A DNA stretch of 40,595 nt from a virus (IMGVR_UViG_2541047967_000005:1-40595), one strand, 5' to 3'; counted from the stretch's first letter, positions 5,623 through 40,595 are shown. The notes: generated by a model not told the origin, from the sequence alone. A program made the numbers and translations.

Positions 5623-5726
5623 GTTAAATCTCCAGATAGTCGCAGCACCCGTTGCGCCGCATATCTGGTTATTCTATTACCCAAAAAACCATATATGGAT
5701 AGAAAGACTGTGAATATGAATAGATA

Positions 5727-5741
5727 TTACCTTTCAGGTAA
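5727..5741. promoter_or_regulatory. Operator-like palindrome TTACC-N5-GGTAA
   Basis: ttacctttcaggtaa; upstream of the LexA box and the 5819 gene; same 16-mer as at 25185-25200. Confidence 0.5.
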
Positions 5742-5778
5742 TTTGCAAAACGTGCTGGATAGCAAACAAATTATTTGC

Positions 5779-5798
5779 TACTGTATAAATATACAGTT
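5779..5798 (+). promoter_or_regulatory. LexA (SOS) box overlapping the promoter of the downstream small gene
   Basis: tactgtataaatatacagtt: CTGT-N8-ACAG with AT-rich spacer, close to the E. coli consensus TACTGTATATATATACAGTA; contains a -10-like tataaa. Confidence 0.75.
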
Positions 5799-5818
5799 AT
5801 TGCATGGAGAAGATTAAG

Positions 5819-6076
5819 ATGCAGCAGTATCACTATCCACTGGAAGAGGGATTTACCGAAAGGATTCACACGCCGGGAGGCGTCAGGTCACTGGTGGAGG
5901 GATCGCACTTGATGAAATTACTCCGGGATCTCGATAAGGATGGATTTAATGTCGATGGCCCACTTGCCGAACTGACTGCACTGATTAACTACGTCACCAG
6001 CTCACAGATGTCTATGCAGGATCTGCAAACACATCTCGACTATTGTGCCGAACAATTACGAAAACAAACCAGATAA
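5819..6076 (+). CDS. Small SOS-regulated anti-repressor-like protein (C-domain paralogue of the Bro proteins)
   Basis: RBS ggagaag 8 nt upstream of ATG 5819 (the track ORF starts at 5804, inside the RBS); C-terminal motif AELTALINYV ... DLQTHLDY parallels AELTTMFCYIV ... DIQTHAEY of both Bro-N proteins; LexA box directly upstream. Confidence 0.6.
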   Translation: MQQYHYPLEEGFTERIHTPGGVRSLVEGSHLMKLLRDLDKDGFNVDGPLAELTALINYVTSSQMSMQDLQTHLDYCAEQLRKQTR

Positions 6077-6212
6077 GATTTGAAATTACCAATAGGAGTG
6101 CTTATATTTACCTTTGCAGTAAATTTACATCGCACTCCTCTTGTGCCATAGTAATCGGGCACTGGCAAAATCCAGTGCCGGGATTGGCGTCCCGGGTTAC
6201 TAAGTGGCGCAT

Positions 6213-6235
6213 ACCACGCCAGACGTGGTTTTTTT
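6213..6235 (+). terminator. Rho-independent terminator inside the Bro1 leader
   Basis: ccacg ccaga cgtgg followed by seven T; a matching hairpin plus T-run sits at the mirrored position upstream of Bro2. Confidence 0.6.
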
Positions 6236-6391
6236 ATGCGTTAAGCACAGCTATATCCGAATTATGGTGGGCTGGGCAGGGGTCCGAAAGGACGCCGGTA
6301 CCACTTAGGCCGGTACGCCAACCTTGTCCAGTTCACCACCAGTAATTGGCGTTGCGGTGGTGATTAAAATCACTAAGTGGAGATAACCACC

Positions 6392-7102
6392 ATGGCTAAT
6401 GCTCAAACTGCCATCTTCAAATTTGAATCTGTTAACCCTATCCGTTCCATCATTATCGATGGCCAACCATGGTTTGTAGCCCAAGACGTTTGTAGTGCGC
6501 TGCGTATCCAAAACGTCACCCAAGCACTTGAAAAACTGGATGATGATGAAAGGTCTATGTTCAACATAGGGCATGAACATCGTGCAATTTTTGACAGCCG
6601 AGTAAAAGAGATCAACATTATCTCCGAGTCAGGCCTCTACACACTGATCCTCCGCTGCCGCGACGCAGTGACACCAGGCACTATCCCCTACCGCTTTCGT
6701 AAATGGGTTACAGGTGAGGTTCTTCCTCAGATCCGCCGCACCGGAAGTTACATTAAAAACTCGCTCCCGCAGGAAGAACGCATAAAGATGGTTGCCGACC
6801 AGGTAGCCAACGCCACGGCGTCAGCAGTAATGCAGGCGATGAAGATAGAGAACAAAACCTACAGCGCCCCACTGAAGCCCGGCTACCGCAGCCTGATTCA
6901 TTCGCCGTCTGGTGTTCTCGGCCTGACGGAGAACTCACTGCTGATGAATCTGCTGAACCAGTTACAGGAAGACGGGCACGATGTATCGGGCGCGGCGGCG
7001 GAGCTGACCACCATGTTCTGCTACATCGTCGGTGTGAGCAAATGCCTGCGTGATATCCAGACCCACGCGGAGTACATCAACGACAAAGCAGGATTCTTCT
7101 GA
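6392..7102 (+). CDS. Bro-N domain anti-repressor-like protein (paralogue 1)
   Basis: RBS ggag 9 nt upstream of ATG 6392; Bro-N pattern (IFKFESVNPIRSIIIDGQPWFVAQDVCSAL); C-terminal 158 aa identical to the 8373-9059 product. Confidence 0.75.
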   Translation: MANAQTAIFKFESVNPIRSIIIDGQPWFVAQDVCSALRIQNVTQALEKLDDDERSMFNIGHEHRAIFDSRVKEINIISESGLYTLILRCRDAVTPGTIPYRFRKWVTGEVLPQIRRTGSYIKNSLPQEERIKMVADQVANATASAVMQAMKIENKTYSAPLKPGYRSLIHSPSGVLGLTENSLLMNLLNQLQEDGHDVSGAAAELTTMFCYIVGVSKCLRDIQTHAEYINDKAGFF

Positions 7103-7174
7103 CGGGCGGCGGCACAGGGATGTGCCTTTAAATAATTCTGTACAGATTGCAGACCGGGGGTGAATAGCGTACTA

Positions 7175-7189
7175 TTACCTTAAAGGTAA
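7175..7189. promoter_or_regulatory. Operator-like palindrome TTACC-N5-GGTAA upstream of the cargo cassette
   Basis: ttaccttaaaggtaa, about 45 nt upstream of the 7232 start. Confidence 0.5.
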
Positions 7190-7231
7190 ACCTGTTTTTA
7201 TTTTATACCTGTAACTTACCGGAGATTAAAG

Positions 7232-7558
7232 ATGACAAAACTTGGATTCGTGATGAGAGGTCCGGTAAGAAGCGGAACTCATGCAAAGCGTAGCAAGAGT
7301 CGTATTTTTACTGGTAAGGTTGTAGCACGTAAATCAGCTATTGGCTCGTTCAATAGTGAAAATGCGGCATTGCGCCATATTTTTATCAGCACAAAGCCAA
7401 GAGCATCCGCTGATGTGCATACAATGTCTATTCCTATCACAAAGAATATCAAGCGGATAAAAAAGCTCTCATCTGCAGAATCAAAAGAGATATCTTTCCG
7501 CCAGCTTAACTCATTAGAAACGCATATGAAGGAAGAGGAATTCGATGTTTTTGAGTGA
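7232..7558 (+). CDS. Basic 108-aa protein of unknown function; first gene of the low-GC two-gene cassette (candidate antitoxin/immunity partner)
   Basis: RBS ggag 7 nt upstream; Lys/Arg-rich N-terminus, acidic C-terminus (EEEFDVFE); AT-rich with AGA codons; 3' end overlaps the next gene by 14 nt. Confidence 0.5.
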   Translation: MTKLGFVMRGPVRSGTHAKRSKSRIFTGKVVARKSAIGSFNSENAALRHIFISTKPRASADVHTMSIPITKNIKRIKKLSSAESKEISFRQLNSLETHMKEEEFDVFE

Positions 7559-8057
7559 GTATAGCGGGAAGGTTATACCTACTGGTGAGTTTAAAACTGA
7601 TGACTTTCTGATTTCGCTAAAAGATGCTTTTAAACAACACTGGCGTCATGGTCATCATCCTGATCTGGGAAAAGATACTCTTTTTGAAAGACCAGACGAA
7701 GTATTAGGCTTCCATCTCAGAAAGGTTCATGTCAATATTGGTGAATATGCATCATATTCATACTCATGTACTGAACAGTGTTGGGATGAGTGGTCATATG
7801 GATTGATTGATGAACAAGGAAATTACAGGCCAAAACCAACCAGTAACGCATATCTCATATATGCAGTCAATGAAATAAGAGATGCAGCCTTACTAGCTTA
7901 TTGGGACCCGCCCGCACACACCAAAGCTAACGCAAAAGTTTGGATGGATTCCGTATTGAATTTCACAAAATTATTTCATGAACGAACGAATACAGCTCCA
8001 CTTAGTAGAAATGTTTATCCGTGGGATTATTCGTACAAATCCAAAAAGCCTGCATAG
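7545..8057 (+). CDS. 170-aa protein of unknown function; second gene of the cassette (candidate toxin/effector, possibly YafO-like)
   Basis: Strong RBS ggaagagga upstream of ATG 7545; translationally coupled to the upstream ORF; low GC; motifs (LFERPDEVLGFHL ... AYLIYAV ... ALLAYWDPPAH) loosely recall YafO-family toxins from memory, not verified. Confidence 0.5.
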   Translation: MFLSEYSGKVIPTGEFKTDDFLISLKDAFKQHWRHGHHPDLGKDTLFERPDEVLGFHLRKVHVNIGEYASYSYSCTEQCWDEWSYGLIDEQGNYRPKPTSNAYLIYAVNEIRDAALLAYWDPPAHTKANAKVWMDSVLNFTKLFHERTNTAPLSRNVYPWDYSYKSKKPA

Positions 8058-8138
8058 TAGTTTTTTATGGACGAAACAAAAGTCAGTGCTACACTCATTG
8101 ACGCCACATTGAGGTGGCTTATAGATGGAAATTTCACA

Positions 8139-8300
8139 ATGAAAAAAGCATTTGCTGCACTGTTCGTTTTGTTGTCTCTGGTAGCTTCAACTCAGGCCTT
8201 TGCCGGTCGTTGTCAGCACGACAGCGACACTGCTGCTGACGGCTCCCGCTGCGGTGGGCGTTCTGCGGATTCCCGCCCTGGCGGCGGTGGCATTCGTTAA
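8139..8300 (+). CDS. Small secreted Cys/Gly/Arg-rich peptide (~53 aa precursor), unknown function
   Basis: Internal ATG followed by a signal peptide (MKKAFAALFVLLSLVASTQAFA) and ~31-aa mature part; weak RBS, so the call is tentative; the track ORF starts at 8067. Confidence 0.35.
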   Translation: MKKAFAALFVLLSLVASTQAFAGRCQHDSDTAADGSRCGGRSADSRPGGGGIR

Positions 8301-8335: not shown

Positions 8336-8372
8336 GATAGTTTCGTTTTGCACATCCCTGTGCCGCCGCCCG

Positions 8373-9059
8373 TCAGAAGAACCCTGCCTTGTCGTTGATG
8401 TACTCCGCGTGCGTCTGGATATCACGCAGGCATTTGCTCACACCAACGATGTAGCAGAACATGGTGGTCAGCTCCGCCGCCGCGCCCGATACATCGTGCC
8501 CGTCTTCCTGTAACTGGTTCAGCAGATTCATCAGCAGTGAGTTCTCCGTCAGGCCGAGAACACCCGACGGAGAATGAATCAGGCTGCGGTAGCCGGGCTT
8601 CAGTGGGGCACTGTAGGTTTTGTTCTCTATCTTCATCGCCTGCATTACTGCTGACGCCGTGGCGTTGGCTACCTGGTCGGCAACCATCTTTATGCGTTCT
8701 TCCTGCGGGAGCGAGTTTTTAATGTAACTTCCGGTGCGGCGGATCTGAGGAAGAACCTCACCCGTAACCCATTTACGAAAGCGGTAGGGGATAGTGCCTG
8801 GTGTCACCGCATCGCGGCAGCGGAGGATCAGTGTGTAGAGGCCTGACTCGTTGATAATATTGGTTTCGCCTTGACGGCCTAAGTTAAATTTAGCCCTTTC
8901 ATCATCATCAAGAGATTTTATTGACATAGTGGGGTTTGTCAGTTGAAGAGCTTTAATAACGTCTTTGGCAACAAACCAAGGATTTCCATCAATAACAATG
9001 GCTCGAATGGTTGCCTCTGATTCAAAATGAAAAACAGATGGGGTTACGTTAGCAGTCAT
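8373..9059 (-). CDS. Bro-N domain anti-repressor-like protein (paralogue 2)
   Basis: Internal ATG (MTANVTPSVFHFESE...) with RBS aggtga; Bro-N pattern (IDGNPWFVAKDVIKAL); C-terminal 158 aa identical to Bro1. Confidence 0.75.
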   Translation of the reverse strand: MTANVTPSVFHFESEATIRAIVIDGNPWFVAKDVIKALQLTNPTMSIKSLDDDERAKFNLGRQGETNIINESGLYTLILRCRDAVTPGTIPYRFRKWVTGEVLPQIRRTGSYIKNSLPQEERIKMVADQVANATASAVMQAMKIENKTYSAPLKPGYRSLIHSPSGVLGLTENSLLMNLLNQLQEDGHDVSGAAAELTTMFCYIVGVSKCLRDIQTHAEYINDKAGFF

Positions 9060-9325
9060 AGTGATCACCTTTGTAGTTAGGTTAATCACCACTACCGACG
9101 CCAATCGGTTGGTGGTGAACTGTGCAGGGTTGGCGTAACCGGCTACAAAGGACCCGGCGCACCTTTCGGTGCCCCCACACAGCCCACCATAGAATAGGTG
9201 CGCTTTACACATAAAAAAACCGCTTATGCGGCATATGTGCCTCTGTAGTAACCCAGGACGCCAATCCCGGCACTGGATTTTGCCAGTGCCTGATTACTAT
9301 GGCACAAGAGGAGTGCGATGTAAAT

Positions 9326-9340
9326 TTACCGAAAAGGTAA
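9326..9340. promoter_or_regulatory. Operator-like palindrome TTACC-N5-GGTAA upstream of the Bro2 leader
   Basis: ttaccgaaaaggtaa; the mirrored site in the left arm (6108-6122, ttacctttgcagtaa) has one mismatch. Confidence 0.5.
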
Positions 9341-9487
9341 TGATAAACGCTAAGAAATATTAAAATCAACCATATTTGGTTAATGCGTATAAAAGAGCCA
9401 GCAGCGAGAAATTGTGCCGCGACGTAAAATAACGAGCATCTGCTGGCTTACAACCAGCGATGTTTCAAATTTGTCACTATTATCAAC

Positions 9488-25163: not shown

Positions 25164-25200
25164 TTGACATTTAACGCGCGAATTATTACCTTTCAGGTAA
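25164..25200 (+). promoter_or_regulatory. Candidate promoter (-35 TTGACA) with operator-like palindrome TTACC-N5-GGTAA
   Basis: ttgaca at 25164-25169; ttacctttcaggtaa at 25186-25200; lies in a 400-bp non-coding region upstream of the tRNA. Confidence 0.4.
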
Positions 25201-25522
25201 CCAAAGAGTTCATTCCGGTTACTAACCTGACTGGCTTGTCGTTAAATTGAACAGGTGGAGTGAGCTTTTATTTTGAGCAGTACGGCGTATGGCACATGCG
25301 CCGATAGCGGTCTGGATGCGTTTAAGGGGCACCCTCCCTGGCTGTGGCAAACGAACCAGGTAGCCGGAATGTGCAAGTCGAGCGGTTTTATTCCGCGCAC
25401 GGGGATTCACCATCCCGGCGATTCGGTGTGACGCCTCGGAAGAGACGAGGGTACAACGATGAGAGCATTTATGGAGCCGCGACAAAGTGTGGCGCCTTAA
25501 CAGGCTAAGTGCTCTCAGCGTT

Positions 25523-27739: not shown

Positions 27740-28335
27740 TGATTGCCATCCTGACGTTCTTTCAGTCTCTTCCTGGCTGCCGCTATGCGATCAGCAATTG
27801 TCACATTCACATTAACATCCAGGCGTTCTTTGAATGCGTTGACGTCGACGTGCTTACCAATCAGTTCGAGGTTCTTCACCTTGTCAGGCCATTTAATTTT
27901 TTTGAGGATGCCAACCAGCTCTTTCTCGTCTCCACGGCCTTCGAACATGTCGGCCAGTTCGAAACCTGTCAGGTACTGCCGCCAGACCTTAGGCCATTCC
28001 GAGACCGGCTTGATGCTCATATCGTCGTTGAGAATGTCAATCACGTCCATCTGGTCGATCTCCACCAGGCGCATGAGAACGTAATCAGCACTGACGCGCA
28101 TTCGTTTGTTGCGCTCCTCCATCAACTCGGCAATCCGTTTTTGAATGCGTTCATCGCGCATCATGACACTGGCTTTAACTGCCGCTGTATTTGGGGAGAA
28201 TCCTGCGTTAATCGCTGCCTGAGTCTGGTTTTCAGGCGTTTTGATGTATGACTGGCAATAAGCCTCCTGCATTGCTGTTAGTGGCTTAAATTGCGTTGAT
28301 TTGCGTTTATAGGTTTTAGGTTCAGCAGGCATCAT
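27736..28335 (-). CDS. Terminase small subunit
   Basis: Internal ATG (MMPAEPKTYKRK...) chosen because a terminator lies upstream inside the longer track ORF; basic DNA-binding N-terminus, helical C-terminus; coupled to terL. Confidence 0.6.
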   Translation of the reverse strand: MMPAEPKTYKRKSTQFKPLTAMQEAYCQSYIKTPENQTQAAINAGFSPNTAAVKASVMMRDERIQKRIAELMEERNKRMRVSADYVLMRLVEIDQMDVIDILNDDMSIKPVSEWPKVWRQYLTGFELADMFEGRGDEKELVGILKKIKWPDKVKNLELIGKHVDVNAFKERLDVNVNVTIADRIAAARKRLKERQDGNQ

Positions 28336-28376
28336 AACCACCGTGGTAATAGTTACCGTTGTGGTAATAGTACCAT

Positions 28377-31915: not shown

Positions 31916-31918
31916 GAT

Positions 31919-31933
31919 TTACCTCCGAGGTAA
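31919..31933. promoter_or_regulatory. TTACC-N5-GGTAA palindrome overlapping the DUF1064 RBS
   Basis: ttacctccgaggtaa; on the minus strand it contains the GGAGG Shine-Dalgarno of the 31915 start. Confidence 0.4.
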
Positions 31934-31980
31934 TTAAAAACCACATAAGACACGAAATCAATAGATTTTAGAATATTTTA

Positions 31981-31995
31981 TTACCTAACAGGTAA
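31981..31995. promoter_or_regulatory. Operator-like palindrome TTACC-N5-GGTAA
   Basis: ttacctaacaggtaa in the P-like to DUF1064 intergenic region. Confidence 0.5.
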
Positions 31996-32032
31996 TTGTC
32001 GAGGCGTAAAAAAATGCGCTATCGCGCTGGTA

Positions 32033-33846: not shown

Positions 33847-33926
33847 GGTAAGCCCTGTTATTAGTATTGGGATTGCGGTTATTTTGTGCTGACACAAAAA
33901 AAAGATCAACCAGATTTGGTTTTTTA

Positions 33927-33941
33927 TTACCTTTGAGGTAC
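33927..33941. promoter_or_regulatory. Operator-like palindrome, one-mismatch variant (TTACC-N5-GGTAC)
   Basis: ttacctttgaggtac between the Cro-like terminator and the replication genes. Confidence 0.35.
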
Positions 33942-33951
33942 GAATAGATAT

Positions 33952-33996: not shown

Positions 33997-34227
33997 TCAT
34001 GAGTAGAAGAAGTATGCCAGTTCCGCTTTTGAGCGCAGCCATTGTCTTGTTTTACAGGCTTTAAAAAGCCCATTCATCAATACCTTACCTGGCATTTTGC
34101 GCTTACCTGTTAAGTGAGTCTGGATATAGTGACTCGTCGTTCCGGCTTCCTGTGCGAAGGCTTCACGCTCATCCGGAGTAAGTGCAAGCCAGTGCTTTTT
34201 GAAATCGAAATGTCCGTTATCGCTCAT
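33997..34227 (-). CDS. Cro-like / YdaS-like HTH DNA-binding protein
   Basis: 76 aa with HTH-like segment (FAQEAGTTSHYIQTHL); divergent from the repressor-like gene and first gene of the leftward replication operon. Confidence 0.45.
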   Translation of the reverse strand: MSDNGHFDFKKHWLALTPDEREAFAQEAGTTSHYIQTHLTGKRKMPGKVLMNGLFKACKTRQWLRSKAELAYFFYS

Positions 34228-34311
34228 AGCTATTGCCTGATATTTATTTCAGATAATAAATATTCACCCATAAGGTAACAAAAATCAAGGATAGTTACCT
34301 ATGGGGTGCAT

Positions 34312-34326
34312 TTACCTGTTGGGTAA
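34312..34326. promoter_or_regulatory. Operator-like palindrome TTACC-N5-GGTAA in the divergent immunity promoter region
   Basis: ttacctgttgggtaa between the Cro-like and repressor-like genes; a GGTAAC ... GTTACC pair lies just upstream (34274-34300). Confidence 0.5.
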
Positions 34327-34381
34327 TATTGCTTTAAATTGAATCATCTACTGATTCATATATGAGGCGATTTTCCAGAAA

Positions 34382-34966
34382 ATGAAAAGTATCCAGGACG
34401 TCCGCAGGCAAAATCTCAACGACTTGATCGACCGTGAATTCAATGGTGTTCAGACGCGGATGGCAGAAAAACTTGGAACTCAGGCAAATCTGGTAAACCG
34501 CTGGGCTCTTGGCAAGAAGGTTATCGGCGACCAGGTTGCGCGAAAAATTGAAGCTGCCGCCAATAAACCCCGTAACTGGCTTGATATCGATCGCTCGCTT
34601 TCTCAGGAAGGTTTTCAGCCTGTCGGCCCAAGCGACATTGGTCAGCTGGCAGCTCACAACCTGGAACGCTGGATGAGTGAAAGCCGCGACCTTTCAACTC
34701 AGGGAAAACTTCACCGCGCATCCGGCGTCGCCCAGGTGACAATAAGCCGCCTGTTAAACAATGAGGTCAGCGTTTCCATTTCCACCCTGGAGAATGTTGC
34801 ATCTGCATTCGGGCGTCACGGATATGAACTACTGATTCATCCGCATGACCCTGCGACCATCAACTATGATCGCTCGCGCTACGCATTGTTACCCGAAACC
34901 GAGAAAGCAAAGATCGAAAGTTACATTGAATTTGTCATCAACCAGAACGAAAAAAACAAACAATAA
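34382..34966 (+). CDS. Prophage repressor-like protein with two HTH segments and no LexA-type peptidase domain
   Basis: 194 aa; HTH-like segments GVQTRMAEKLGTQANLVNRWALGKK and GVAQVTISRLLNNEV; no S24 autopeptidase motifs seen; divergent from the Cro-like gene. Confidence 0.5.
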   Translation: MKSIQDVRRQNLNDLIDREFNGVQTRMAEKLGTQANLVNRWALGKKVIGDQVARKIEAAANKPRNWLDIDRSLSQEGFQPVGPSDIGQLAAHNLERWMSESRDLSTQGKLHRASGVAQVTISRLLNNEVSVSISTLENVASAFGRHGYELLIHPHDPATINYDRSRYALLPETEKAKIESYIEFVINQNEKNKQ

Positions 34967-35012: not shown

Positions 35013-35023
35013 TGCCTATTCGA

Positions 35024-35038
35024 TTACCTAACGGGTAA
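35024..35038. promoter_or_regulatory. Operator-like palindrome TTACC-N5-GGTAA (upstream site of a pair)
   Basis: ttacctaacgggtaa, 20 nt upstream of a consensus -35. Confidence 0.5.
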
Positions 35039-35057
35039 TTTTTTTAACTCATATCTA

Positions 35058-35100
35058 TTGACATCAAACCATATACGCATAATTATTACCTCAACGGTAA
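35058..35100 (+). promoter_or_regulatory. Candidate early rightward promoter (-35 TTGACA) with operator-like palindrome over the -10/start region
   Basis: ttgaca at 35058-35063; AT-rich -10-like cataat/ataatt; ttacctcaacggtaa at 35086-35100; drives the small ORF and the RecE/RecT operon. Confidence 0.5.
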
Positions 35101-35119
35101 CAGACCGAGGTAACAAGTT

Positions 35120-39338: not shown

Positions 39339-40595
39339 TTATTTATTACTGTCTTCCATCCACTTCTCAAACTTCGACGGGGAGAACGGAATCAGATCCG
39401 TATGCTCCCCGTTAATCCAGGAATCAATCATATCTGCCCACTGCTGCAACATGTAGGCGCGCTGTCTGGCGTATTCCGCTTTGTTATATACGGCGCGCAC
39501 ACCTTTCTGCTCGTGTGCCAGAGCCTTTTCAATCCAGTCTGAAGGATAACCAGCCTCATGCAACAATGTACTGGCTGTACGGCGCATATCATGTACAGTA
39601 AAATCCTGAATATGCTCACCATCTTCATTTATTATTTTCACCGTTCTGTCGATCAGAGAGTTCAGCGCGGCATTAGATAATGGCTTCCGGAAATTGTAAC
39701 GACCAGGAACCAGATATTCACTTCCACCAGCGCACATCTGCAACCCGACTAATATATCCTGTGCCTGTTTAGGCAGGTAAATAACGTGCGCCCGACTTCC
39801 CTTCATGCGGTCTGAAGGAATTGTCCATGTCCATTTTTTAAAATCTATTTCATCCCACGTTGCATTGGTGAATTCTCCCTTACGAACCATGGTGATAAGC
39901 ACCAGCTTTAAAGCCATTTTCATAGTGCCCATAGCACCAATGGCATCCAGCGTGCGGAAGAACAGGCCAATTTCTTCTGGTGTCAGTGTTCGCTCTCGTG
40001 GTTTAAATATGGCGATAGACGAAGGTTTAATGTCAGCCGCAGGATTAAACAAACCATGACCACGGTCATTGGCGTGACGGTATACGCTGCTGATGATCTC
40101 CCTGGCCTGTACTGCTGTTGCCCGACCACCGCGTTCGACAATCCGGTCACACAAATCACGAACCATTGATGTGGTAATTTCAGCCATCATTTTGTTGCCA
40201 AGAACCGGAAGTATGTCACGGTCGATCACCGCCTGCTTCATTGCGCGGGTACTGTCAGCCAGGATGACGTGTTTCATATAACTGTCGGTATGTACCGCAA
40301 ACGTCTCGGCACCACGAATCTTTTTAATACCGTCACGTTTAGCCGCAGCCGGTGACTGGCCTGCTTTAAGCAGCTTCTTTGCAGCAATCAGTTCTTCTCG
40401 CGCTTCTGCCAGGATGATACCGTCACGCCCATACTGCCCGATTACCAGTGTTTCGCGGCGACCGTTGATACGGTAGTCATAGCGAAACGAGACCGTGCCT
40501 GACGTAAGCACAGCTACATACAGCCCGTCACGATCGGAGACCTTGTACAGTTTGTCCTGCGGCTTGAGGTTTTTTAATTTTGTATCGGTAAGCAC
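39339..40595 (-). CDS. P4-family tyrosine integrase, 5' end cut by the window edge
   Basis: N-terminal LTDTKLKNLKP ... pattern of P4-like integrases; C-terminal HDMRRT and AVYNKAEY catalytic region; the first codon in the window is GTG at the edge. Confidence 0.75.
   Translation of the reverse strand: MLTDTKLKNLKPQDKLYKVSDRDGLYVAVLTSGTVSFRYDYRINGRRETLVIGQYGRDGIILAEAREELIAAKKLLKAGQSPAAAKRDGIKKIRGAETFAVHTDSYMKHVILADSTRAMKQAVIDRDILPVLGNKMMAEITTSMVRDLCDRIVERGGRATAVQAREIISSVYRHANDRGHGLFNPAADIKPSSIAIFKPRERTLTPEEIGLFFRTLDAIGAMGTMKMALKLVLITMVRKGEFTNATWDEIDFKKWTWTIPSDRMKGSRAHVIYLPKQAQDILVGLQMCAGGSEYLVPGRYNFRKPLSNAALNSLIDRTVKIINEDGEHIQDFTVHDMRRTASTLLHEAGYPSDWIEKALAHEQKGVRAVYNKAEYARQRAYMLQQWADMIDSWINGEHTDLIPFSPSKFEKWMEDSNK

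Follow-up and report, generated by a model that had tools for sequence, protein, structure and literature searches.

The locus examined here raises the question of how a prophage might respond to DNA damage when its repressor carries no recognisable self-cleavage domain. The window (the whole stretch of 40,595 nucleotides that was analysed, IMGVR_UViG_2541047967_000005) had been predicted from its sequence alone to contain a near-consensus LexA box in front of a small antirepressor-like gene. It was further predicted to encode a helix-turn-helix (HTH) repressor lacking an S24 peptidase, with SOS induction proposed to work by LexA-derepressed expression of the antirepressor. The box, the two genes and their surroundings were therefore compared with characterised phages and with related loci.

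Relatives of the window were HEMP4 (97.7% identity), TL-2011b and ZX5 (both ~94%) and phiV10 (91%), and its gene order follows that of phiV10. Positions 1-1071 correspond to host yfgH/yfgI, a chromosomal locus matched at 99.9% identity. Since the left end is host DNA, the window represents an integrated prophage. By these matches it is identified as a phiV10/epsilon15-like (Uetakevirus) prophage of E. coli inserted beside yfgI, and the integration site agrees with that reported for ZX5, phiV10 and epsilon15 (PMC9782041). The prophage begins with lysis genes near 1290 and ends on the right with the integrase (39339-40595).

Read directly, the letters at 5779-5798 are tactgtataaatatacagtt, as given in the original prediction. 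The E. coli PSSM scoring proposed for this site was run with an approximate, symmetric LexA matrix derived from 28 published E. coli sites (Lewis 1994; Fernandez de Henestrosa 2000). The 20-mer scored 27.55 bits out of a matrix maximum of 29.3, above every one of the 28 training sites (12.2-26.4 bits). The runner-up LexA-type site in the 40.6-kb window reached 10.99 bits at an unrelated position, and the top site over 200 shuffled windows reached 20.9 bits with the same PSSM. For the bare pattern CTGT-N8-ACAG the window has three copies where 0.58 would be expected, a number that 2 out of 100 shuffles also reached, so the pattern by itself is weak evidence. The score of 27.55 bits, set against the runner-up and the shuffled windows, indicates that the box is real, very strong and the sole one in the window, which bears out the predicted near-consensus site as the only credible box present. 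In the PSSM scan of the window, no LexA boxes were found ahead of rep or of the two Bro-N genes described below.

The box is followed by an open reading frame for an 85-aa protein, as predicted. The alignment of relatives keeps the GGAG at 5806-5809 but not the in-frame ATG at 5804; the start of the gene was therefore placed at 5819 (Table 1). The product matched a single PDB sequence, chain E of 5D50 (E=1.6e-47, residues 2-84 on 3-85), which is recorded as 'Anti-repressor protein' of Salmonella phage SPC32H, and it was 88-89% identical to SPC32H Ant. The gene lies divergent from the tailspike gene, a synteny shared with SPC32H, epsilon15 and phiV10. It belongs to phrog_450, listed as 'unknown function' in PHROGs, and is a 'hypothetical protein' in RefSeq. 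Pfam returned only a sub-threshold match to DUF724, which was treated as spurious and rejected. No Bro-N domain was found in the small Ant by Pfam and no isrK/C4-type RNA cassette upstream of ant by Rfam, and no NCBIfam model matched either Ant or the Bro-N proteins. Among 5,426 complete E. coli genomes, 529 (~10%) matched ant together with the region upstream of it. Across members of the group from E. coli, Salmonella, Citrobacter and Enterobacter (Tyrion), Ant is 85-99% identical, falling to 78% in Enterobacter phage BUCT554.

A consensus promoter scan at the LexA box gave no match of at least 9/12. With a relaxed scan the best hexamer pair for ant was TGGATA and TACTGT, scoring only 7/12, so these hexamers are put forward as candidates. 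The elements CTGGA.A and TA.TGT are conserved family-wide, the candidate -10 hexamer overlaps the left arm of the LexA box, and a TATAAA sits within the box. From this arrangement we infer that the box overlaps the ant promoter.

Table 1. Positions of the LexA box, the antirepressor and repressor genes, and associated elements in the window
Feature	Position	Strand	Basis or detail
LexA (SOS) box TACTGTATAAATATACAGTT	5779-5798	.	PSSM score and conservation; ends 20 nt 5' of the ant ATG
Candidate ant promoter (inferred)	5756-5784	+	-35 TGGATA 5756-5761, 17-nt spacer, -10 TACTGT 5779-5784
Shine-Dalgarno GGAG for ant	5806-5809	+	Invariant in the alignment of relatives
ant, 85-aa stand-alone antirepressor, SPC32H Ant orthologue	5819-6076	+	PDB match, identity, phrog_450
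Rep-operator-type palindrome ATTACCTTTCAGGTAAT	5726-5742	.	Between tailspike start and LexA box
immI-like cassette 1	6146-6343	+	c4-a1b1 targets 6146-6198; isrK-like with terminator 6159-6235; C4 antisense RNA 6260-6343
Bro-N antirepressor with complete Ant-type C-terminal domain (copy 1)	6392-7102	+	Pfam Bro-N E=1e-19
Bro-N antirepressor with Ant-type C-terminal domain (copy 2, inverted duplicate)	8373-9059	-	Homology to copy 1
immI-like cassette 2	9108-9341	-	c4-a1b1 9302-9250; isrK-like 9289-9213; C4 9194-9108
Divergent 76-aa gene, Cro-like by position	33997-34227	-	ORF list and synteny; homologue of phiV10 p41 / SPC32H_042
Operator-type palindrome TTTACCTGTTGGGTAAT	34311-34327	.	rep-cro intergenic region
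rep, 194-aa prophage repressor	34382-34966	+	PDB and Pfam; two HTH regions and C-terminal tail, no S24
Two operator-type palindromes	35023-35039, 35085-35101	.	3' of rep, ahead of early-left genes
Operator-type palindromes, all positions	5726-5742, 7174-7190, 9325-9341, 25185-25201, 28334-28368, 31918-31996, 33926-33942, 34311-34327, 35023-35101		

Conservation of the box was followed over 96 related loci, comprising 8 from phage records, 8 from other species (Citrobacter, 'Ca. Erwinia dacicola', Superficieibacter, Pseudocitrobacter, Scandinavium, Kluyvera and Klebsiella) and 80 from IMG/VR. A LexA box stood ahead of ant in 93 of these. This count includes two loci, L010 and L012, that the start-finding pattern of the automated scan had missed and in which the box was confirmed by eye; L010 carries the SPC32H box sequence, at 25.2 bits. 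In the 91 scored loci, the box reached at least 18.4 bits and ended 18-20 nt 5' of the ant ATG. In the alignment of the tailspike-ant intergenic region, it occupied identical columns in all nine phages. The 8-nt spacers varied (ATAAATAT, ATATTTAT, ATAAACAT, ATGTTTAT, ACATATAT and others) while the CTGT and ACAG arms were kept, a combination that is the signature of selection for LexA binding. The Klebsiella-type box had a weakened left arm (ATGT) and scored 18.9 bits.

Three loci showed no apparent box. Two were ruled out as genuine losses: L066 is interrupted by a contig end, and in L062 (IMGVR_UViG_3300045988_013119, positions 1-54) the contig begins with AGATGTGTATAAGAGACAG, the Nextera transposase adapter, which runs into the LexA box. 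The start of this public viral contig is thus adapter contamination. Only L026 (IMGVR_UViG_2563366870_000004) has a true junction, at about 1461-1480, where unrelated DNA replaces the left LexA arm (AGACCC, followed by ATAAACATACAGTT). This prophage possibly carries a natural LexA-blind ant, analogous to SPC32N, a two-nucleotide sister of SPC32H in which, according to the alignment, a C to A change turns the right arm from ACAG into AAAG.

The 194-aa Rep was a full-length homologue of the 'Repressor' chain of PDB 5D50 (5D50_A, E=4e-42, residues 1-190 on 2-197) and also matched 5D4Z, a C-terminal fragment. It was 100% identical to phiV10 p40 and ZX5 ORF21. Against SPC32H Rep the identity was 41.8% by tblastn and 43% by MAFFT, with all segments alignable: 53% in HTH-1, 34% in HTH-2 and 48% in the C-terminal tail. 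The GenBank record of SPC32H names the two genes ant and rep. The only Pfam match of the window's Rep was HTH_3, an HTH-type model, and no Peptidase_S24 was found by Pfam at E<=0.01. Nor was an S24-type repressor found anywhere in the window with LexA and lambda CI as tblastn queries (best E=0.73). The claim of an HTH repressor without S24 thus stood up to both searches. The synteny of the divergent Cro-like gene next to rep is shared with SPC32H, Tyrion and BUCT711. Within the family there is an asymmetry, in that Ant is highly conserved while its presumed target Rep falls to 42% identity with no domain clearly spared.

The 17-bp palindrome ATTACC-N5-GGTAAT occurred at 14 sites in the window, allowing up to 2 mismatches, against 1.1 expected, and its near-consensus copies are intergenic. 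The copy nearest to ant lies 53 bp upstream of the LexA box and is kept in all relatives aligned; in GenBank its epsilon15 counterpart carries the annotation 'protein_bind repressor'. Sites syntenic with the rep-cro intergenic copy are found in SPC32H, Tyrion and a Klebsiella phage, in which palindromes flank rep too, and the epsilon15 equivalents of the pair at 35023-35101 are also annotated as repressor-binding. Based on these matches, the palindromes are probably Rep operators dispersed across the whole prophage.

A switch composed of Rep, Ant and LexA has been published for SPC32H by Kim and Ryu (J Virol 2013) and by Kim et al. (PNAS 2016), and the Rep of this phage is reported to stay uncleaved during SOS. 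The window resembles SPC32H in genus, in the divergent order of tailspike and ant, in the position of the LexA box (its end 19-20 nt from the ATG), in the 88-89% identity of Ant, in a Rep that is a full-length homologue without S24, and in the ATTACC/GGTAAT half-sites around rep. It differs in that its Rep is the phiV10 allele, 42% identical, its host is E. coli, its box spacer is ATAAATAT rather than ATGTTTAT, and two Bro-N/Ant-domain genes with isrK/C4 cassettes are added downstream of ant. As far as the SPC32H-type Rep/Ant/LexA system can be recognised from sequence, the locus agrees with it at every point. The locus is therefore orthologous to the SPC32H system and belongs to a sister species within the genus, and the mechanism is not new.

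Three sources describe how the system operates in SPC32H. PMC7380047, citing Kim & Ryu 2013, states that after LexA self-cleavage the antirepressor blocks the repressor by protein-protein contact. PMC9638917 describes SPC32H Rep as binding DNA in the form of a tetramer, with an Ant tetramer binding two Rep dimers and thereby breaking the Rep tetramer. The C-terminal 'CAD' of Rep is presented in PMC9986798 as a p53-like domain serving both tetramerisation and contact with Ant. Transferred to the window, Rep would hold lysogeny through the ATTACC-N5-GGTAAT operators and would be unable to cleave itself, while host LexA would silence ant from the box overlapping its promoter and start region. Upon DNA damage, activated RecA would lead to self-cleavage of LexA, and Ant would be made. 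Ant would then bind the C-terminal tetramerisation domain of Rep and convert the DNA-binding tetramer into inactive dimers, and the splitting of the tetramer would derepress the lytic promoters.

That a LexA-gated Ant inactivating a non-cleavable Rep is the SOS induction switch of this prophage is, on the strength of the homology, very probable. The predicted route of induction is supported by the orthology of both Ant and Rep and by the box standing where it does in SPC32H. By analogy, an Ant 88-89% identical to that of SPC32H would act on a phiV10-type Rep with 42% identity; the contact between the two proteins is an extrapolation here, because Rep is only 42% identical to SPC32H Rep. In ZX5, the Rep is identical to that of the window and the Ant 98.8% identical. 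Mitomycin C raised the titre of a ZX5 lysogen from 10^7 to 10^9 PFU/mL, and overexpression of ZX5 Rep blocked the lytic cycle (PMC9782041).

The two Bro-N genes downstream of ant had been predicted to share a C-terminal motif with its product. This similarity is real and extends to the whole domain: over 74 residues the small Ant and the Bro-N C-terminus shared 42% identity (E=9e-16), and the C-terminus of copy 1 matched 5D50_E over residues 3-79 of 86 (E=1.2e-13). With whole-domain Ant homology in both Bro-N proteins, the prophage encodes three Ant domains. Copy 2 is 82% identical to copy 1, the C-terminal halves being identical, and ZX5 ORF4, the anti-repressor tested in that phage, agrees fully with copy 1 in its C-terminal part (~145 residues). 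The inverted duplication (6097-7125 and 8350-9351) takes in the whole cassette, including palindrome, promoter, RNAs, Bro-N gene and leaders. The longest arms of the inverted repeat measure 518 nt and are 97% complementary. The two-copy region was covered to at least 80% in only 2 of the 5,426 complete E. coli genomes.

A cargo module (7232-8300) lies between the inverted Bro-N copies, with an operator-type palindrome at 7174 ahead of it. It encodes a 108-aa protein (phrog_5933), a 77-aa putative membrane-associated protein (phrog_3117/14503) and a 170-aa YafO-family toxin-like protein, the last based on a weak Pfam match and the RefSeq name YafO family toxin.

Each Bro-N gene is preceded by an RNA cassette. 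In Rfam, cassette 1 scored 67.7 bits for isrK (gathering score 50), 66 bits for C4 (gathering score 45) and 44.1 bits for c4-a1b1, just under the gathering score of 46.7. Cassette 2 scored 79.5 bits for C4 and 72.2 bits for isrK, both above gathering scores, and again just below for c4-a1b1. Ahead of each Bro-N gene stands a promoter-like TTTACA-17-CATAGT with an operator-type palindrome directly beside it: at 6124-6152 in cassette 1, which also has a terminator-like site at 6213-6229, and at 9324-9296 in cassette 2, next to the palindrome at 9325-9341. The isrK/C4 cassette is wholly absent from SPC32H and epsilon15 and occurs in one copy in phiV10 and ZX5. Both Bro-N genes (6392-7102 and 8373-9059) thus have the features of Bro-N/antisense-RNA antirepressors, which the small Ant lacks. 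Judged by these elements, the Bro-N genes are under P1 immI-like C4-type antisense RNA control and not under LexA.

The Ant domains of the Bro-N fusions raise an alternative in which these proteins (6392-7102 and 8373-9059) are the decisive antirepressors in induction and the small LexA-controlled gene is an accessory. Both fusions in the window contain a complete Ant-type domain, and overexpression of ZX5 ORF4, identical in its C-terminal half, cut lysogens ~1000-fold and repressor transcription by 75% (PMC9782041). However, the sole LexA box of the window, at 5779, stands ahead of neither Bro-N gene, and the runner-up of 10.99 bits has an unrelated position. Both genes also stand behind isrK/C4 cassettes and operator-type palindromes, by which they should stay off until Rep has been inactivated. 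Furthermore, SPC32H and epsilon15 are without the cassette, and SPC32H induces via its small Ant. We therefore consider a leading role for the fusions unlikely, although the small Ant is perhaps not the sole route of induction, given two Bro-N/Ant-domain proteins of which one has a homologue with measured anti-lysogeny activity.

The remaining alternatives concern the box and the repressor themselves. The palindrome could be a LexA or AT-rich promoter site belonging to the divergent tailspike gene, or a chance occurrence, with the 85-aa protein having some other role; the box does lie in the intergenic stretch that the two genes share, with the tailspike start (5622) 157 nt away, and the window holds three copies of the bare CTGT-N8-ACAG pattern. 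This reading is very improbable in view of the distance from box to ant ATG, which is fixed at 18-20 nt despite differing tailspikes (GDSL esterase, beta-helix and endosialidase types), of a PSSM score above all 28 training sites, and of the 88-89% identity of the protein to an antirepressor crystallised bound to its repressor. Self-cleavage of Rep stimulated by RecA, as in lambda CI but without a recognisable S24, is favoured only by the general prevalence of that mechanism, and nothing in the sequence points to it. Pfam gave no Peptidase_S24 for Rep, the tblastn comparison with LexA and lambda CI gave no similarity, and Rep is homologous along its full length to a solved repressor that ends in a p53-like tetramerisation domain and not in a peptidase, so that self-cleavage appears barely credible. 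The preferred reading remains the LexA-gated Ant acting on a non-cleavable Rep.

The original prediction had likened the locus to Tum of coliphage 186 and to the Gifsy prophages. In 186 and in Gifsy-1/Gifsy-3 (Shearwin 1998; Lemire et al. 2011, PMC3121763), a LexA-repressed small antirepressor acts against a non-cleavable repressor, which is the same logic, and the comparison holds for functional analogues. It does not extend to descent, since the true family is the Ant of the SPC32H/epsilon15 group. Searches of Pfam, PHROG and PDB gave the SPC32H-type family only, with no homology of Ant to Tum (DinI-like) or to the Gifsy antirepressors. The lineages also differ, 186 being a P2-like myovirus and the Gifsy phages lambdoid siphoviruses. 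The P1/P7 immI locus (c4 antisense RNA, icd, ant) and the IsrK locus of Gifsy-1 resemble the cassettes ahead of the window's Bro-N genes. The immI likeness concerns these genes and not the LexA-controlled small ant, and the antirepressor body here is Bro-N joined to an SPC32H-type Ant domain.

Also close in content are ZX5 and phiV10, with Rep 100% and Ant 96-99% identical and an att region near guaA/yfgI. In the descriptions of ZX5 (PMC9782041) and phiV10, the Bro-N protein is the sole named anti-repressor, the small gene is hypothetical and LexA is not mentioned. The ZX5 study credited antirepression to the Bro-N protein alone and overlooked the small ant (PMC9782041). There is also a gap in annotation: Ant has been characterised functionally and structurally (5D50), yet has no Pfam or NCBIfam model.

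The occurrence of three Ant domains also allows a tiered antirepression circuit built from one fold, linked to a highly conserved Ant able to act on different Rep alleles even where these share only 42% identity; we regard this as possible but rather doubtful. In such a circuit the stand-alone, LexA-gated Ant may be the only SOS sensor. The Bro-N::Ant fusions, gated by operator-type palindromes and C4-type RNAs, may come on only once Rep begins to fail, and may either amplify the response by feed-forward or act in trans against immunity. If true, the cross-reactivity of Ant would permit cross-induction among different Uetakevirus prophages.

The LexA-Ant-Rep switch would explain the SOS inducibility of such prophages without a cleavable repressor. 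The box, altered by a point mutation as it is in SPC32N, would provide a simple handle by which induction may be locked or triggered.
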